This document shows positions 4,935 through 43,361 of a stretch of 64,000 nucleotides of DNA, piece after piece. Each line of letters begins with the position of its first letter. Positions within the stretch are counted from its first letter, which is position 1. Source of the DNA: an uncultured virus (IMG/VR IMGVR_UViG_3300003860_000003) (lineage: Duplodnaviria; Heunggongvirae; Uroviricota; Caudoviricetes); the IMG/VR virus record IMGVR_UViG_3300003860_000003, positions 1 to 64,000 of that record. One strand, written 5' to 3'. The position numbers and the translations under genes were made by a program. The notes under the pieces are model-generated. The model ran no database searches and was not told where the DNA came from. It saw only the letters and a list, made by a program, of their open reading frames with translations.

Positions 4935-5681
4935 TTAATGTTTAAAATTTCGGTGATGATGAAATAATTGAGAATAGGGTGAATTTAAGAATTTGCCCTT
5001 TTCTTCGTTTCCCCATTGAGTAGGATCTCTAAACAACTCAAAATTATTTCTTACAGATAAAATAGTTAAAACAGACTGATCATGTCTATGATCTTTAAAT
5101 TCTATAAAATTTGCTTTTCCGCACATATTAGGATCATCAGTTACAATTCTTGTATCTCTTAAATATCTTAACCATTCTTTTAAGAAATTTATATTATCTT
5201 CATTTTTTACCCATAATGAAACTGCACCATTAGTCATAGGAGCATTCCAGTACTTTTCTTCATCAGCATCTGTTAATATAAAACAATCTCTTTTAGTCCA
5301 TATTTTAGCAATATGATTTGCGCCAACCCAGGGTACTTTAAAAATAATTTTACCCTTATTAATATTGCTTTTAGCGATATCAAATAAAGGACTAAGGTTA
5401 TCTATTACTTTAAGTCCTGCATCACTGTAGAGGACTGTATCACCATTCTCGAGCGTTTCAAATGTCTTTAAGATAAGATAAGGTTTCCATATCCAAAATC
5501 CTGCACCTCTATGTTGAGATAATATGAAAGAATTTTTTCTCCAAAATTCTTCAATTTTTAATTCATTTTGAGTATATCTAATAAATTGATCTATTTTTCC
5601 TACTACTAAAGATGATTCTTCTAATACATCTAAACTTTTATAATAATCTTCATTTCCGAATGATATGTGTACTTTTTTCAT
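4935..5681 (-). CDS. putative glycosyltransferase
   Basis: RGAGFWIWKPY, YSDAG, HRHDQS motifs of a viral/bacterial GT-A-like family. Confidence 0.6.
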   Translation of the reverse strand: MKKVHISFGNEDYYKSLDVLEESSLVVGKIDQFIRYTQNELKIEEFWRKNSFILSQHRGAGFWIWKPYLILKTFETLENGDTVLYSDAGLKVIDNLSPLFDIAKSNINKGKIIFKVPWVGANHIAKIWTKRDCFILTDADEEKYWNAPMTNGAVSLWVKNEDNINFLKEWLRYLRDTRIVTDDPNMCGKANFIEFKDHRHDQSVLTILSVRNNFELFRDPTQWGNEEKGKFLNSPYSQLFHHHRNFKH

Positions 5682-6325
5682 AATTCTATTGGTTCTCCTA
5701 TAAAATGATTTTCTTCTCTCATGTGAGGTATTTTTTTTGCGTTTTCACGATATCTATCCCAATCATCATGAATACATGCAGATTCTTTAATTAAAGGATA
5801 TATCATTCTTGCAAGAAATTCTTGATCAGAAGCATATATATTATTATATTGTAATGTGTTAAATTGTTTTAACAGATCATCATAATCTATTCTATTTATA
5901 AATTCTTTTGTTGCTCCCCACACACCGCCCATAATTTTAGTATTATGATGAATATGATCTCTTATAATATGAAATTCCTTTTCAGAAAATTCCCAATCTT
6001 TTACACAATTTACTTCTCGTTGAGATAATCTTCCATCACAATCTCTAACTATAAATCTTTCTACATCACTATCCTTAAGAACTTCAAATCTCCAAAACAT
6101 TCCTGGAGCGTCCATATGTTTAATTACAGGATTTTCATGTTTTATAATTATTTCAGCACCATCGTGATATAATTCTGAAATATATCTATGATTTATTGAT
6201 TCATGATAATAAAATCTACAAATCCAATCTGGAAATAATTGTTTTTGTAATTTAATATTTTCAATAGCTCCTTGCAAATATTTTGGATTATCGCCCCAAA
6301 GTGAAAAACTAATTATTTTTTTCAT
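5678..6325 (-). CDS. putative glycosyltransferase-like protein
   Basis: ISFSLWG..PKY, MFWRF, RDCD (DxD), DQEFL. Confidence 0.55.
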   Translation of the reverse strand: MKKIISFSLWGDNPKYLQGAIENIKLQKQLFPDWICRFYYHESINHRYISELYHDGAEIIIKHENPVIKHMDAPGMFWRFEVLKDSDVERFIVRDCDGRLSQREVNCVKDWEFSEKEFHIIRDHIHHNTKIMGGVWGATKEFINRIDYDDLLKQFNTLQYNNIYASDQEFLARMIYPLIKESACIHDDWDRYRENAKKIPHMREENHFIGEPIEL

Positions 6326-36687: not shown

Positions 36688-37392
36688 ATGAAATATAAAA
36701 TTAAAACATTTGATCAATTTGCTAAACTAGATGAAGAATTTTACAATCCGTTTGAAAAAACAGATATCGTAGTAAAACCTTCACATATTGCTGATAAAGG
36801 GGGTTTCTTGACAGCGCGTAAAGAAGTGTTCAATGTTAATCGTGTAGAATATTCTAAGAAAAAGAATGGAGGATATCTTGTGTTAGCTAAAACACAATAT
36901 GCTAAAGGAGAAATAGTTGAAATTGCGCCTATTATTTTTGTGGGTCTTGAAGCAAAAGCAGTTCCAAGATTAAAAGATTATATTTTTGAAATCGATAAAA
37001 ATAAAATGCAATACGGTATTGTGCTTGGATATGGCAGTTTATATGGGCATTCACCTCAACCAAATATCACATTTGCTTATAATAAAGATAATCGTCAAAT
37101 GTATTTTATCGCAGCAAGAACTATAAAAGCTGGAGAACAACTTACAATTGATTATGGAAAAGATTATTGGGAAGAACGTTCAGGATTTGGAACAATGGCT
37201 CCAGAAGAACTTAATAAAGTTACAGATGGTAAAGCAGTAGCAGCCAAAGGAGAAGTTGAAGAGAGTATAGGTCTTCAGCAAAATGCTGCCGATATAACTG
37301 ATGCGAATAGGGTAAAACAATTTTCGCAACCTAATGATAGATCCAACCCTGCAATTAGCGGAATTGCTATAAAGGGTCCGGGCCAGTCTTAA
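36688..37392 (+). CDS. SET-domain protein (putative lysine methyltransferase)
   Basis: GYGSLYGHSPQPN, ARTIKAGEQLTIDYG.DYW. Confidence 0.88.
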   Translation: MKYKIKTFDQFAKLDEEFYNPFEKTDIVVKPSHIADKGGFLTARKEVFNVNRVEYSKKKNGGYLVLAKTQYAKGEIVEIAPIIFVGLEAKAVPRLKDYIFEIDKNKMQYGIVLGYGSLYGHSPQPNITFAYNKDNRQMYFIAARTIKAGEQLTIDYGKDYWEERSGFGTMAPEELNKVTDGKAVAAKGEVEESIGLQQNAADITDANRVKQFSQPNDRSNPAISGIAIKGPGQS

Positions 37393-38069
37393 TTTAATAA
37401 ATTTTTATTTTTAAGAGTTTTAGAAATTTTAAGTGAACATTTTAAAACCCGTTCATCAATTTCTTTTGTTAATCCTTTATTCCATGTAGTTTTTCCTATA
37501 TGAGATTGCCTATTTTTTTCATTTGATTCTAATGAATTTTTTACTCCTATTGCAGCTATTGACATTTTATTAATAGTATCATTTGAAAAACACCCGGGTT
37601 TTCCTTTATTCCAAGGAATGTTTCCTTTTAAACGTTTAGAAATGTTTTCGCCAAATTCTTTTTTCATTTTTTTTCCTTTGTTTTTACCTAACATTGATTT
37701 TCTTCTTTTTTCTTTTGTTTCTAACGATTGTTTTTTATTAATATGTGCGATAGTATTTAATTCTATTGCGTAAGCATAATCTCGAGCTGATAAAAATTTG
37801 TCATATTTTTTATTAAATGACATATAGAAAAAAGCACCGTATATTTTTGCGTTTTCTTTATAAATATATGTAAGTAATTTATGACAGACATAATGTTCCT
37901 TTGCTGTTAATAAAACCAAATTATCTTTATCATTATTTCCACCTAAGCATTTGGGCAAAATATGATGATTTTCATAATAAATATAATTTTCATTATTTCT
38001 ATTAAGTTTAATTCTATTTTCAGATTTTGCTCTCTGAATTATAGATTCATAGACTTTTTGATGATTCAT
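37389..38069 (-). mobile_element. free-standing HNH endonuclease with NUMOD3-like tail
   Basis: YENHHILPKCLGG.N...NLVLLTAKEHY.CH; PWNKG repeats; paralog of 51271. Confidence 0.9.
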
Positions 38070-38186
38070 GATTTCCAAACTTTATTTTAGACTAATATAT
38101 AATTAAAGGGGGACAGTTGGTTATCCAAACTACCAATTGGCTTGTCAGAGCCTCACCTCTTTTATTATATATTAATGTAGAGTTTT

Positions 38187-38212: not shown

Positions 38213-38545
38213 TTGAAAGCGCAATATGTATTTGAAAAATTTGTAGAAGAATCTGATCCCATTTATGATATGGGTATTGGAATAACTCACACCAAGAAAA
38301 ATTTTCCTGATGATGTACGAATGTTTCAATATATAATAAAAATATTACCTCAAATTTTAAAAACTCCTACAATACCTAACGATATAATTAAATCTAATAC
38401 TTATTATATAAATGAAAAATATCATCATGATATACAAATGTTTATTAATGAATATTGTAAAATAAAAGGAGAAAACCCCTGGTTTGATTCTGAGATGTTA
38501 CAAAAAATGTTACAACGAAGAGGATTTAGAATTAGACAAACATAA
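38213..38545 (+). CDS. EKF..DPI.DMGIG-cassette protein
   Basis: TTG start; cassette at 38234-38281; body resembles the N-half of 41450. Confidence 0.75.
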   Translation: MKAQYVFEKFVEESDPIYDMGIGITHTKKNFPDDVRMFQYIIKILPQILKTPTIPNDIIKSNTYYINEKYHHDIQMFINEYCKIKGENPWFDSEMLQKMLQRRGFRIRQT

Positions 38546-38568
38546 ATATATAATAAAAAAATTAGTTT

Positions 38569-38913
38569 ATGGATTTAAACTTAATTAAAAGTATATCAAT
38601 CTCTTTGATGAAAAGAGATACTGATATAGAAGAAGGCAAAGCAGAATACCTTAAAAAAATATCTGCTAAATTTGAAATTCCTGAAAACTATATACTAAAC
38701 GAAGCATTGACTGAACAAATTGTCACGAGTATTTTCGATGATCTTTTAACCAGTGCACCAGATGAAGTAGATTCTATAGGTCTTTGGATAGAATATGGTT
38801 CTATTACTTTAGAGAACGCGATATCTCTACGGACCTTAGATGACATTTCGATGCATTCTAAACAAAATGTTAATCCCATTTTCGAGTTTTTTAAAATGAC
38901 CTTACCAGAATAA
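38569..38913 (+). CDS. hypothetical protein
   Basis: ORF preceded by AAATATATAATA motif. Confidence 0.65.
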   Translation: MDLNLIKSISISLMKRDTDIEEGKAEYLKKISAKFEIPENYILNEALTEQIVTSIFDDLLTSAPDEVDSIGLWIEYGSITLENAISLRTLDDISMHSKQNVNPIFEFFKMTLPE

Positions 38914-38951
38914 GATGGTTAGCTGGGCCCTAAATTTAACCATAATCCGGA

Positions 38952-39023
38952 TGGCGTGTAGTTTAATGTCAGAACAACGAAAATCATCTTCGTAGGTACA
39001 GGGTGGGATCCAGGTTCACGCCA
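38952..39023 (+). ncRNA. degenerate tRNA-like element
   Basis: 7-bp acceptor TGGCGTG/CACGCCA, T8A9, D stem GTTT/GAAC, anticodon stem ACGAA/TTCGT with 7-nt loop AATCATC; T arm broken. Confidence 0.5.
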
Positions 39024-39105
39024 TCTTTTTATCCCAAAAATTTTGATATATAGAACAAAACTAAACTAAAAATACGAATATAAAAGTAAAATTTTTTACT
39101 ACAAA

Positions 39106-40281
39106 ATGGAACAACAAATAGATTCGTCTAAAAACCAGTATCAACCAGCTCAGGAGATTATCGTTGATACTGAAGAACCCCCTCTTATCATCTCCGAAAA
39201 AACTCAATCTTTTAAAAATAGATTTTATTCAGATGTATCTGATACTAATTGGAATGATTGGCATTGGCAGATACGTAACAGTATAACTACATATGAAGAA
39301 TTGAGTCGTATATTTGGAGATTCAAATTATGAATTATCCAAGAATATAAATTTACCATTAAGAATTACTCCATATTATGCAAGTACAATCACTTCTCTTT
39401 CAGAAGGAATCGGAAAGTGCGTTATTCCAACCAATAACGAACTTCACGTAACTGAAAATGAGAAAAACGACTCGCTGAACGAAGAACATCAAAGTCCTGT
39501 GGAATGTATAGTTCATAGATATCCAGATCGTGTATTATTTCTAACCACGGACTTTTGTTCTTCAAATTGTCGATACTGTACAAGAAGTAGACTCATAAAT
39601 AGAGAACGAATTCCTAAGAAAGCGTGGGAAAAGGCGCTTCAGTATATTAGAGAACATACTGAGATACGAGATGTGTTATTATCTGGAGGAGATCCTTTAA
39701 CTATGAATGACGATAGTATAGAATATCTTCTTAAAGAAATTAAAGAAATAAAACACGTTGAGTTCTTAAGAATTGGAACTAAAGTTCCTGTTGTGTTACC
39801 TCAAAGAATTACGCCAGAGTTAACTAATATCTTAAAGAAATATCATCCTTTATTCATAAGTATTCATTTCTCTCATCCCGATGAAATAACTTCAGAAGTT
39901 AAACAAGCGTGTGAAAAGCTTGCGAATGCAGGAATTCCTTTAGGTTCTCAAACAGTATTACTCAAAGGCGTTAACGATGACCCACAAATTATGAAAAAGC
40001 TTATGAATAGTCTTCTTACAATTAGAGTTAGACCATATTATATATATGCATGCGATCTTGTTGCAGGTACAAGTCATTTTAGAACTACTATTAATAAAGG
40101 ACTTCAGATTATCTCAGCATTGAGAGGCTGGACGAGTGGTTACGCGTGTCCAACATTTATTGTAGATTCTCATTTAGGAAAAATTGAAGTCTGTGATAAC
40201 ATTATATCGCATAAAGATCATGTATATGAATTTAAAAGTTATACTGGAGAAATTTTAAGATATGAAGAAAATGTAGAATAA
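39106..40281 (+). CDS. kamA: KamA-family radical SAM lysine 2,3-aminomutase
   Basis: WNDWHWQ, LRITPYY, HRYPDRVL, CSSNCRYCTR, LSGGDPL, QTVLLKGVND, RPYY, HFRT, TSGYA. Confidence 0.92.
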   Translation: MEQQIDSSKNQYQPAQEIIVDTEEPPLIISEKTQSFKNRFYSDVSDTNWNDWHWQIRNSITTYEELSRIFGDSNYELSKNINLPLRITPYYASTITSLSEGIGKCVIPTNNELHVTENEKNDSLNEEHQSPVECIVHRYPDRVLFLTTDFCSSNCRYCTRSRLINRERIPKKAWEKALQYIREHTEIRDVLLSGGDPLTMNDDSIEYLLKEIKEIKHVEFLRIGTKVPVVLPQRITPELTNILKKYHPLFISIHFSHPDEITSEVKQACEKLANAGIPLGSQTVLLKGVNDDPQIMKKLMNSLLTIRVRPYYIYACDLVAGTSHFRTTINKGLQIISALRGWTSGYACPTFIVDSHLGKIEVCDNIISHKDHVYEFKSYTGEILRYEENVE

Positions 40282-41258
40282 TCTTTATTAGTAATTATTA
40301 AATAATTATACCCATTAAGAATAGTATATTTTTTCTTTGCTTCTATTTTTTCTTTATCTTTTTTTAAAAGATAAGAATTTTTTATTTCAACGATAAGATT
40401 TAAAGATGGAATGTAAAAATCTGGAAAATATAATCTGGATTCATTTTTATATTGATATTTTATTGTTGGGCCATTAACTATATCAGAATATACTGGGTAA
40501 AATTTTTCTAAAAAATCATATTCATAAGATGCTCTATAGTTTATAATAGTATTTTTATATTTTTTTGAATAACACGCGTTTTTTTGTTGTTTATCATGCA
40601 CTTCTTTATTCTGTGATGGATTTTTAACTCCATATTTATCTATACAAGTTTTTTCTATTTTATCTCTAACTTTTTTATTATTATTTGGATTTTCAACTCC
40701 ATATCTTTGCATACAAGTTTCTTTTATTTTATTTTTTACATCTATTCGTTGAAACGTATTTTTTACTCCGAAATTTTCTAAATTAGATATAATTATTTTT
40801 TCTTGAATTTTTAAAGACTGAAATGGATATTCTACTTCCAATTTTTTTAAATTATTTTGTTTTATTTCTTTTTGTATTTTTTCATTTTTCATAGGGCATT
40901 TATGCCCATATTTTTTTATCATCGTTTTATTTACTTTTTCTCTAATAGTTTTATCTTTAGTAGGAGAATTTACACCATATCTAAGTAATAAAGTTGCTTG
41001 AATTTTATGTGTTCTAAATTTTTTAGTGCAGTCAGATGAACAACAATTTTTATAACCTTTTCCTAATCCTATAAATGTTGTTTCTTTTTTACAAATTTTA
41101 CAAGTATTTTCATCATTTTCTTTTAGCCATTTATCATAATATGTTTTTTGAGAATAGTGATTAAGTCTTATATGTTTACTTAACCCATCGATTTTAACAA
41201 ATGTGCGTTGGCATTCTTCACATATAAATAAATTCTTTTCTTTTTTGAATTCTTTCAT
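40239..41258 (-). mobile_element. free-standing PD-(D/E)xK endonuclease with Zn finger and KYGV-type repeats
   Basis: C2H2 N-terminus, repeated (K/R)YGV.NP units, YFPDFYIP..NLIVEIK; antisense and overlapping the kamA 3' end. Confidence 0.82.
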
Positions 41259-41265
41259 TTTTTAT

Positions 41266-41276
41266 TTTATATATTC
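41266..41276 (-). promoter_or_regulatory. late-type promoter carried by the endonuclease element
   Basis: GAATATATAAA on minus strand just upstream of 41258. Confidence 0.6.
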
Positions 41277-41294
41277 ATGAAAAAATTTAGGTTT

Positions 41295-41426
41295 GTTCCT
41301 CAGTTTATTATTGATACTCCGGGTGGTAAAATACCTATGTTACCAGATTATTACGTTGGACGTGAAGGAAATTGTGTAAAATTAAAAAACTATGAAGGAC
41401 GTGAATTTATATATTATGAAGATTAA
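41295..41426 (+). pseudogene. orphaned original 3' end of kamA (43 aa)
   Basis: VPQFIIDTPGGKIPMLPDYYVGREGNCVKLKNYEGREFIYYED* resembles the canonical KamA C-terminus; no start codon at its 5' end. Confidence 0.9.
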
Positions 41427-41449
41427 ATATATAAATAAAAGTCTCTTTA

Positions 41450-42313
41450 ATGCGAGCACAATATATTAACGAAAAATTTATAGAAGAGTCGGATCCCATT
41501 CATGACTTAGGAATAGGAATTTATGCGAAACGTAGATTTAAAGATGAAGATGACGCTGCAGATTGGTTTTTTAAATATTTAACTGTTATTTTAGGTACAG
41601 ATAAAATCCCTGATGATATCATTTTTCCTGAAGATGAAAATACTGCATTTAATTGGAAATATTATAATATATTAGATGAATACGCTAAGAATTATACTAA
41701 AATGGAAAACAGACATACTGGTAATCCTTTTGCATATATTTATATGGGTGTAAGAAATAAATTATTAAAATTAGGATATCCTAAAAGACACCCAGATACA
41801 GGAAAACGTATAAAACCCCAAAAACATATAGATGAAAAATTTATTGAAAGTGATGATGCGATATATGATATGGGCATAGGATTAAAATCAAGATACAAAG
41901 ATTTAGTTAAATTATTTGGAAACGCTGATAAGAATCATTATATTTTTACAGTATATGTACGTAATGGATATATAGATTTCTGGTTTAATAATCCTAAAAT
42001 TAAAAACTTACCGAAAAATGAAATTGATAAGTTAGGTAAATATGTTAAAGATATTATTAATAACTTGGGATTTTCTTCCATTTTAATTAAACCGCGATTA
42101 ATTAGACATTATTTTAAAAAAGATGATGTAACATTACCACGAATAGTAAGATTTACTATAACGCCTACATTTAAAGACATAGTACCCCGCGCAAATTATA
42201 GAAGACAGCTTTCTAAACCTCCGTATTTTACAGATTATCATGAGTATGAATATGAACATGAAAAGAAATATAGACGTGAAATTAGAGCTATGGAAGGTGA
42301 TGATCAAAAATAA
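41450..42313 (+). CDS. two-module EKF..DPI.DMGIG-cassette protein
   Basis: cassettes at 41471-41518 and 41834-41881. Confidence 0.78.
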   Translation: MRAQYINEKFIEESDPIHDLGIGIYAKRRFKDEDDAADWFFKYLTVILGTDKIPDDIIFPEDENTAFNWKYYNILDEYAKNYTKMENRHTGNPFAYIYMGVRNKLLKLGYPKRHPDTGKRIKPQKHIDEKFIESDDAIYDMGIGLKSRYKDLVKLFGNADKNHYIFTVYVRNGYIDFWFNNPKIKNLPKNEIDKLGKYVKDIINNLGFSSILIKPRLIRHYFKKDDVTLPRIVRFTITPTFKDIVPRANYRRQLSKPPYFTDYHEYEYEHEKKYRREIRAMEGDDQK

Positions 42314-42321
42314 ATATTAAT

Positions 42322-42639
42322 ATGAAAAAACTTATTAAAGAATCTTTATATGAAAAATTTGAAGAACATTCAGATCCTATTAAAGATATGAAAATAGGTT
42401 TTAATAGAAATAGATATCTTACAGAAAAATTAAAAAGATATAATATAGAAGTTGATACTTATTATGAAGGATTTGCTTATTTAATACAAGAACTTTATAA
42501 TAGAGAAGGCGTAAATAACCTTGTAAATACAATTCTTGATAATACTCCTGCGGAATATCAAAAACAATTTATAGATGAATATGTTTATTCATTTCTTGAA
42601 GGAGAAGATTTAGAGATTTTACCAGAAGATGAAATTTAA
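42322..42639 (+). CDS. EKF..DPI.DMGIG-cassette protein
   Basis: MKKLIKESLYEKFEEHSDPIKDMKIG. Confidence 0.75.
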   Translation: MKKLIKESLYEKFEEHSDPIKDMKIGFNRNRYLTEKLKRYNIEVDTYYEGFAYLIQELYNREGVNNLVNTILDNTPAEYQKQFIDEYVYSFLEGEDLEILPEDEI

Positions 42640-42953: not shown

Positions 42954-43361
42954 ATGAAAAAATTAGTATACGAAAGTCTTAATGAATTTATATCATCAGT
43001 AGCAAACGATAAAGATATATTTAAAGGACAAAAGAAAGTCGGTTTAACTGTTGAAGATGTTGATTCAAGAGAATTTCTTGTAGGAATGGAAGTTGAAAAA
43101 GAACACTCTTCTGATTTATCAGTAGTTGAAACAATTGTTCTTCAACATTTGTCTGAGAATGAAAAATATTATAGTGAAGGAATGAAAAAGGGTATTTTTG
43201 AAGAGCCTGCTGCTATAAATTTATATAAAAAATATTTTATTGATAAAGAAGAACCAGAAAAACCTAAATCTGCGAAAAAATCGCCTGAACCTGCTGCAGT
43301 ACCAGCAGAACCTGCAGCAGAAAAAGGCCCAGATTTAGGAGGTATGAATTTAGGAGGTTAA
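42954..43361 (+). CDS. DUF5661-like protein with capsid-targeting-like leader
   Basis: GMEVEKEH...HLSE...YY; MKKLVYESLNE leader; promoter motif at 42931-42941. Confidence 0.65.
   Translation: MKKLVYESLNEFISSVANDKDIFKGQKKVGLTVEDVDSREFLVGMEVEKEHSSDLSVVETIVLQHLSENEKYYSEGMKKGIFEEPAAINLYKKYFIDKEEPEKPKSAKKSPEPAAVPAEPAAEKGPDLGGMNLGG

Follow-up and report, generated by a model that had tools for sequence, protein, structure and literature searches.

A foreign C-terminal tail on a phage kamA gene, with the native tail stranded behind an antisense endonuclease gene

The DNA analysed here (the window) covers the first 64 kb of a viral record of 133,176 bases, IMG/VR IMGVR_UViG_3300003860_000003, which is estimated to be 33% complete. 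Its source is a huge phage. The subject is its kamA, a gene for an enzyme of the lysine-2,3-aminomutase family, and the DNA directly behind it, a locus that a separate 405-kb contig holds at 100% identity. Comparison of sequences confirms that this kamA is a chimera, whose C-terminal tail arrived with an insert. The native tail lies stranded downstream, behind the gene for a homing endonuclease that reads in the opposite direction. Very probably, a homing-endonuclease cassette from a donor with a different type of tail (type B) replaced the tail of this gene and left the native one (type A) behind.

The chimeric gene occupies 39106-40281 (+) and encodes 391 amino acids of a radical S-adenosylmethionine (SAM)/pyridoxal phosphate (PLP) enzyme. 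Residues 1-347 (39106-40146, +) form the native, type A body. Residues 348-391, with the stop codon, form the foreign, type B tail (40147-40281, +), which holds D354 and K359. This tail is the first part of an inserted cassette of 1148 bp (40147-41294), as delimited by the edges of identity to relatives. The cassette also contains the gene for a free-standing homing endonuclease of 339 amino acids (40239-41258, −), which is convergent with kamA and overlaps its 3' end by 43 nt, and a motif (41261-41278, −; reverse complement ATGAATATATAAAATAAA) that stands 3 nt upstream of the endonuclease ATG. A 36-nt spacer separates the endonuclease from the stranded type A tail (41295-41426, +), here called the orphan. 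It lies inside a 49-codon open reading frame (ORF; 41277-41426, +), in which homology to KamA begins at 41295. Beyond it lies the native downstream context (41423-42313, +), with an intergenic motif TTAAATATATAAATAAAA, whose first four bases overlap the end of the orphan, and then the next gene (41450-42313). The coordinates that an initial annotation had given for this locus all hold in a check of the ORFs.

The two tails are versions of the same C-terminus. They align over 42 positions with two one-residue gaps (pairwise E 1e-5), 14 of the 42 positions being identical (33%); as DNA, they are 51% identical. The stranded piece alone matches the Pfam domain LAM_C with 31.0 bits (cut-off 26.7; E 3e-7), and aligns to residues 324-365 of 2A5H, the lysine 2,3-aminomutase of Clostridium subterminale (E 1e-4). 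In the initial annotation, the two tails were said to align, the stranded copy was called the more canonical, its reading frame was said to be open, and both copies were said to keep the lysine of a GK pair. All of this stands. The orphan runs for 43 codons to its stop without an internal stop, and reads PGGKIP where the tail in use reads LGKIEV. The lysine of its GGK falls on chain residue 337 of 2A5H, as does K359 of the tail in use (counted from the printed alignment); D354 of the tail in use aligns to D330. K337 is the lysine that binds PLP, and the aligned Asp (D330 in 2A5H, D354 here) contacts the substrate.

Which tail is native can be read from the relatives of the gene. Here, 120 KamA homologs were collected, and each was split at residue 347/348. 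The 18 homologs having the nearest bodies (P0002-P0019, 75-81% identical to the body in the window) carry tails that are 70-86% identical to the orphan, with the exception of P0009 (40%); the value of 86% is reached by P0003 and P0005. To the tail in use, the tails of these same homologs are 27-36% identical. The tail in use is instead closest (55-61%) to tails of type B, which follow the pattern DS..GKI[DE].. and then NI[IV]S, and which sit on bodies 54-71% identical to that of the window.

At the level of DNA, the orphan is 61-78% identical to the tails of relatives (71-78% for the five closest, L012, L013, L014, L016 and L061), the last ~125 nt of the body are 65-76% identical to the corresponding DNA, and the tail in use is 45-59% identical to the same tails. 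Left of the orphan, identity to the body of the relatives falls to 24-31%, the random level. After the stop codon of the orphan, the motif ATATATAAATAAAA and the ATG of the next gene are placed as they are after intact kamA in relatives, and the 3' flank of the orphan is collinear with the flank of intact kamA in L012, L013, L014 and L025. This, in turn, means that the orphan lies in the original 3' context of the gene. The earlier suggestion that the insertion is recent fits these values: relatives differ from the orphan (identity up to 86% in amino acids, 71-78% in DNA for the five closest tails) no more than they do from the body (81%, and 65-76% for its last ~125 nt). Thus, the central proposal of the initial annotation, a replaced C-terminus with the native tail stranded behind an antisense endonuclease, is borne out by the discordance between body and tail, by the collinear flank of the orphan, and by the assignment of the endonuclease.

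The exchange of tails is not confined to the window. Trees of bodies and of tails were made from 87 proteins, the top 90 matches minus the truncated P0068, P0070 and P0077. In the body tree, the sister of the body in the window is the A-type P0019, and B-tail proteins such as P0009, P0023, P0049, P0056 and P0059 stand among bodies of type A. In the tail tree, A and B are separated by one split (support of 96 in the Shimodaira-Hasegawa-like approximate likelihood ratio test, SH-aLRT), which is partly circular, the labels having been defined from the tails; the tail in use falls within the B side (SH-aLRT 96). Placed on the body tree, the label B has to change at least 10 times, and starred branches force at least 5 of these changes; the approximately unbiased (AU) test rejects the B carriers as one clade (difference in log-likelihood 202, p-AU 0.0006). 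Bodies and tails have therefore recombined repeatedly, since B is scattered over the body tree and a single clade is rejected. This explains the mismatch, in huge phages, between kamA tails and the remainder of the gene.

The edges of the insert were located by the same comparison. On the left, the switch falls within the conserved stretch GWTSGYA(C/V)P, at about 40120-40170. On the right, identity to relatives jumps from 24-31% to 61-78% at 41290-41295. Both edges map to the same codon, about 347/348, and the 1148 bp are therefore a clean insertion, with native codons neither lost nor duplicated. The insert is richer in AT than the DNA around it, with a GC content of 25.0% for the tail in use and 21.7% for the endonuclease gene, compared with 33.9% for the body and 31.0% for the orphan. 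The motif upstream of the endonuclease recurs, exactly but inverted, ahead of the + gene at 42954. With at most 2 mismatches, the window has 15 occurrences of GAATATATAAATAAA, where 5.06 would be expected, and none of 100 shuffles reaches 15. Locus L080, described below, has TTTATTTTATATATTCATGAAA in the same position relative to its own endonuclease. As judged from such occurrences, the motif is likely to be a promoter-like start signal. It contains TATAAATA, the consensus of T4 late promoters.

A group I or group II intron, or an intein, was also considered for the insert and rejected. Rfam gives no match at E<=1 in 38500-42000, the ORF of the insert runs antisense to kamA, and a stop codon closes the tail in use. 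No tRNA is called by ARAGORN in the window.

The ORF between the two tails had been read as an endonuclease, and Pfam, PHROG, invariant catalytic residues and the alignment of its structural model all agree with this. In Pfam, it matches DUF7487 (8.8e-41), with further matches, below their cut-offs, to the TnsA-like nuclease N-terminal domain (6.7e-5) and to zf-C2H2 (0.0031; 18.3 bits, cut-off 25.2). Its PHROG matches are 3339 and 12131, both "homing endonuclease", and 15137, "endonuclease". The protein is built from a C2H2 zinc finger, a second Cys cluster, the helical YGV-N repeats of DUF7487, and a C-terminal nuclease of the PD-(D/E)xK type. Across nine copies from five contigs, the residues of PDF...EIK (D280, E291, K293) and the two zinc-binding clusters are invariant (9/9), and the number of YGV-N repeats varies.

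The AlphaFold2 (AF2) model of the endonuclease, with a mean predicted local distance difference test score (pLDDT) of 80.1, contains the zinc finger and six helical repeats, with residues 238-339 forming an alpha/beta domain. For this domain, the VIA Z scores are 8.7 to 3HRL, 8.3 to I-Bth0305I, 8.2 to Vsr and 7.9 to TnsA, a level that can arise by chance and is common for unrelated models. Foldseek with the whole model gives no match at E<=0.001, and a sequence profile run against PDB finds zinc fingers only (1e-7), and no nuclease. The predicted PD-(D/E)xK fold thus rests on the motif together with a consistent list of matches, and on no single match.

Endonucleases of the DUF7487 family are found at 213 places in 96 records of the phage collection, with up to 13 in one Lak megaphage. 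There are three copies in the record studied here, and three in L006. The two further copies in this record (C1:127086-128201 and C1:129694-130608, both −; loci L072 and L075) are also antisense to their neighbours. The copy at C1:129694-130608 overlaps by 35 nt the 3' end of a + gene whose product begins MEKFPTYN, and L006 has an endonuclease, 62% identical to this copy, with a like overlap of that gene. For these MEKFPTYN-linked endonucleases, the arrangement points to a site-specific, orthologous placement. No orphan is seen by eye beside either of the two further copies, in 1795-1950 of L075 or in L072, where the gap is just 50 nt.

The enzyme whose tail has been exchanged is well placed in its family. 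KamA matches Radical_SAM in Pfam with 56.6 bits (cut-off 29.5; 4.6e-15), and has the CxxxCxxC cluster motif as CSSNCRYC at residues 151-158. In phmmer, the full protein aligns to residues 7-368 of 2A5H (E 3.4e-111). With its new tail, it scores 26.1 bits for LAM_C, just below the cut-off of 26.7. Foldseek aligns the AF2 model of KamA (mean pLDDT 84.5) with 2A5H at E 2.8e-43, TM-score 0.81, and 48% identity over 368 columns. For the tail in use, the model gives a beta-rich C-terminal domain, with pLDDT of 83-91 for residues 350-389. Phage KamA and the Clostridium enzyme thus have in common the CxxxCxxC motif and the lysine aligned to K337. They differ in that the alignment stops at residue 368 of the 416 of 2A5H, the last ~48 residues being missing from the phage protein. 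KamA relatives of ~389 amino acids likewise end at the equivalent of this residue 368.

The chimeric enzyme is probably functional. We infer this because the new tail keeps the positions of the Asp and the Lys and is confidently modelled, and because tails of the same class are the sole tails of kamA in the endonuclease-free loci L078, L079 and L081. The enzyme could be an EpmB-like or other aminomutase. Among the ORFs scanned with Pfam and PHROG, no partner genes that would hint at a use of beta-lysine by the phage were identified. The finding by itself says, of course, nothing about the role of phage KamA.

The same layout occurs in other phages. A total of 67 kamA loci was compared, 62 from phage and viral collections (L001, L002, L004 and L012-L070) and five, L077-L081, retrieved from metagenomes. 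Among named phage records, the best matches to KamA are the uncultured huge phages LR756500 and LR756501, at 51-55% identity. Within the 62 collection loci, a second copy of the tail is found only in L004, the 100%-identical copy of the present locus. L059 and L070 each have one weak match to a tail 3 kb upstream (35% over 31 amino acids, E 6e-3, with one query), which is taken as chance; L060 ends before its tail. A scan of viral contigs with a single protein for close relatives returned the same phage only, and a DNA search of the phage collection returned just one partial match, at 70% identity.

Two of the metagenome loci have the arrangement of the window. In L077, kamA has a B tail and is overlapped by 23 nt by an antisense endonuclease. 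This is followed by a remnant of an A tail of ~17 codons (LVLRNYKGRQFTYNED*), and then by the conserved motif and the next gene; A-type codons 348-372 are missing. In L080, a B tail and an antisense endonuclease are followed by an A orphan of 69 codons that begins at SHFRT (residue 323). The L080 orphan is 82-84% identical to P0013 and P0015, and the kamA in use at that locus shares 83% identity with the B-type P0024. The endonuclease is variably present, and is found in full or as a stump in 4 of the 67 loci (L004, L077, L080 and L063). In all three of these that have it intact, there is an A orphan, a B tail in use, and the endonuclease exactly between them. The fourth, L063, has a stump of 76 amino acids, the zinc-finger N-terminus (2183-2413, −), directly after a kamA (1042-2169) shortened to 375 amino acids, whose tail ends abnormally; there is no orphan. 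As a set, these loci resemble the stages through which homing elements usually pass: invasion, decay and loss.

Other endonucleases are found near kamA as well. In L002 (LR756501), an ORF at 5048-5761 (+), GIY-YIG-like by eye in its N-terminal motif, begins 34 nt past the kamA stop. This suggests that the 3' end of kamA attracts different endonuclease families. In the window, an unrelated free-standing HNH endonuclease (37389-38078, −; PHROG 655 "homing endonuclease", 1.1e-39) lies 1 kb upstream of kamA, antisense to its neighbours.

Of the paths by which a cassette may have come to replace the tail, the one favoured here is a one-sided repair of a double-strand break. The gene would at first have ended in the type A tail now at 41295-41426. 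In a mixed infection, it would have met a relative whose kamA had a B tail and a convergent, overlapping gene for a DUF7487/PD-(D/E)xK endonuclease. This endonuclease, or its ancestor, would have made a double-strand break in the most conserved stretch of kamA, near codons 345-348 (at about 347/348), which is 11 codons before the codon for the PLP lysine. The broken left end would then have invaded the donor kamA and copied from it the B tail, the gene for the endonuclease, and some 36 nt of the motif upstream of it. The right side, without matching homology, would have been sealed illegitimately onto the broken end of the recipient itself ("one-sided" homing), and it is because of this illegitimate joining that the native tail would have survived intact but disconnected. 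A review of the mobile elements of phage T4 (PMC2988022) describes homing events of this one-sided kind, with illegitimate junctions.

With the new tail, the gene would have regained an open frame together with the Asp that binds the substrate and the Lys that binds PLP, and the replaced sequence at the break would shield the new allele from being cut again. Variants of the same route could account for the differences between loci. Little resection would give the clean insertion seen here; resection of the right end would give L077; a break or a conversion tract further upstream would give L080.

Several observations weigh against this route, and they should be given their due. The endonucleases linked to kamA are 41-45% identical to one another, no closer than paralogs elsewhere (36-48%), so no single kamA-specific lineage is visible. 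The L080 orphan, starting at codon 323, would retain a site near codon 347, which implies either that the enzymes cut at different places or that the idea of a site is wrong. In all three loci, the donor DNA extends no more than about 30-65 nt upstream of the endonuclease ATG. Such regularity is not expected from random illegitimate joining, and a pre-formed cassette, or later trimming, fits it at least as well. A close donor was not found, the best match to the tail being ~60%. L078, L079 and L081 have B tails with neither endonuclease nor orphan. Further, L077-L081 were retrieved from the metagenomes by the B-tail pattern itself, which biases the link between B tail and endonuclease, and the B group, though named from the tails, was put to the AU test when the body tree was already known.

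The regular ends of the donor DNA bring to mind a two-sided homing event, in which a pre-formed cassette of B tail plus antisense endonuclease enters a fixed site at codon 347/348 of A-type kamA. Here, the endonuclease would recognise the uninterrupted site, and the orphan with the DNA downstream of it would be the right homology arm, not debris. An insertion clean to within a few bases, like those at the homing sites of introns or inteins, is what such a cassette would give. So are the unbroken orphans of the window and of L080, whose conservation equals that of the body, and donor ends that always lie 30-65 nt upstream of the ATG, with 22 nt shared between the window and L080. The boundaries, however, differ by locus, the orphan starting at about codon 323, 348 or 372, and L077 has lost A-type codons 348-372. 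The exact boundaries of the window recur in no second genome among the 62 + 5 kamA loci, copies of the same phage aside, and the endonucleases of the three loci are just 41-45% identical. Two-sided entry of a pre-formed cassette is rather doubtful. Doubtful to a greater degree, and unlikely on the whole, is plain recombination at a hot spot in the 3' end of kamA, with the endonuclease a bystander carried along by an unequal or illegitimate crossover. B tails do occur without an endonuclease in L078, L079, L081 and L030; the type of tail has switched at least 5-10 times, yet an endonuclease or its stump is found in 4 of 67 loci; and after kamA in LR756501, another endonuclease-like ORF (GIY-YIG-like by eye) has settled. 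A bystander, however, need not sit exactly between an A orphan and a B tail in three of three loci with an intact endonuclease, nor need the junction fall in the most conserved stretch of the gene. Nuclease genes, moreover, occupy the boundaries of genetic exchange in phages, according to the title of PMC10448857.

Two further explanations can be given very little weight. The initial annotation had raised the thought that the insert might be an invertible or excisable alternative tail, and had allowed for splicing to the orphan; in such a programmed system, either C-terminus could be made by inversion, excision or splicing. Both tails do have the Asp and Lys positions, and the orphan is free of internal stops. 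But no direct or inverted repeats bracket the insert, the tails are 51% identical as DNA, and none of the 7 ORFs scanned in its vicinity matches a recombinase family in Pfam, so the switchable tail is not upheld. Nor does splicing find support, there being no Rfam intron at E<=1, an antisense ORF in the insert, and a stop codon proper to the tail in use. In L077, the orphan is down to ~17 codons, and in L063 it is absent. A programmed alternative tail is thus highly improbable. Even less credence is due to an artefact in which the contig is a chimera of two phage strains. The record is, of course, a metagenome assembly. The identical arrangement is nevertheless present in the separate 405-kb record, analogous arrangements are present in the unrelated contigs L077 and L080, and the collapse of strains would not yield a complete antisense gene between two copies of a tail.

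Two features in the vicinity of kamA are worth recording. Between the gene at 38569-38913 and kamA, positions 38915-39030 (+) hold a conserved structured element of relatively high GC content. A hairpin whose loop is GGGCCC is followed by a long outer stem (GATGGCGTG...CACGCCATC) around inner hairpins, with a T-run after the stem. The element is found at the same place in L077, L012, L014 and L016. RNAalifold, with five sequences, gives 27 pairs, 12 of which have compensatory double changes; neither Rfam nor a tRNA search calls the element. It could be a small RNA embedded in a terminator, or a leader. The second feature is a large family of small paralogous proteins with the N-terminal motif EKFxEESDPIxDMGIG (66-nt repeat family D1), with no match in Pfam or PHROG. 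Members lie in the window at 38213-38545, 41450-42313 (internal copies at 41455 and 41818) and 42322-42639, and also in L072, L075 and L077. The gene natively after kamA is one of them.

The kamA locus shows a route by which a homing endonuclease in a phage can enter a coding sequence without destroying the enzyme, by bringing with it a substitute, exon-like tail. Such a solution has so far been described for fungal mitochondria. One may tentatively go further, and propose that the B tail is the element's own module for rescue and immunity. Having a divergent copy of the 44 codons for the substrate Asp and the PLP Lys, the element could enter the catalytic core of a gene with neither intron nor intein, keep the enzyme working and erase the target site, with the orphan serving as the right homology arm of the next round. 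This is a possibility that we would hold loosely. If it is true, the polymorphism of A and B tails, with its at least 5-10 switches, is a record of repeated invasions and losses, and phage homing elements of coding sequences have a third general strategy, beside introns or inteins and the splitting of genes. For annotators, a short "hypothetical" ORF after an endonuclease of this kind is a relic of a gene. The locus also offers a natural pair of alleles (A intact, as in the uninterrupted kamA of L012-L016; B with endonuclease) with which to test the target site of the uncharacterised DUF7487 family.

Word searches of the open-access literature found no phage case with both a replacement tail and a stranded native tail, which is no proof of absence; a word search for phage kamA aminomutase gave one unrelated review. 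Partial parallels are available. Among PD-(D/E)xK homing endonucleases, the comparison is with I-Bth0305I (PDB 3R3P), to which the nuclease domain of the model aligns with Z 8.3 and a root-mean-square deviation of 3.4 over 89 residues, a Z that is common for unrelated models, with no match in sequence. I-Bth0305I is intron-encoded, whereas the kamA endonuclease is free-standing.

In being free-standing, it resembles the Seg and Mob endonucleases of T4-like phages, which stand as genes of their own between or beside conserved genes and are variably present, as treated in PMC2988022, PMC2790892 and PMC2330249. Homing in these phages comprises, in the same accounts, intronless homing, marker exclusion, and the co-conversion of flanks. 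PMC2988022 documents both co-conversion of donor flanks and, in T4, one-sided illegitimate repair, and the same is proposed here. The outcomes it describes are replacement of flanks or splitting of a gene (nrdA in Aeh1, gene 60/39 in T4, gene 43 in phage 25). Here, in contrast, there is a substitute tail and the native tail is kept, and the endonuclease belongs to neither the GIY-YIG nor the HNH family.

Of the known systems, the mORF "gene hybrid" found in the mitochondria of fungi comes nearest. There, in atp6 of Allomyces macrogynus and in atp6, atp9, cox2 and nad3 of Glomus sp., an endonuclease ORF brings a foreign C-terminal piece, and the native C-terminal piece is kept downstream and is much closer to the sister species than the inserted piece is; the explanation offered in that account is endonuclease-mediated transfer (PMC3630166). 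The likeness to kamA extends to the insert in the 3' part of the gene, the in-frame foreign C-terminus, and the native piece downstream that is closer to relatives. The Glomus mORF, as PMC3630166 presents it, is integral to the transcript of the gene and in phase for atp6 and nad3, whereas the kamA endonuclease is antisense. The host, too, is a phage and not an organelle, and the endonuclease is of the DUF7487/PD-(D/E)xK kind, rather than LAGLIDADG or GIY-YIG. Its gene has the opposite orientation to kamA, comes with a start motif of its own, and overlaps the 3' end of the new tail. Unlike the fungal hybrids, finally, the kamA cassette has as its target a radical SAM/PLP enzyme, and the piece that it replaced carries the cofactor lysine.

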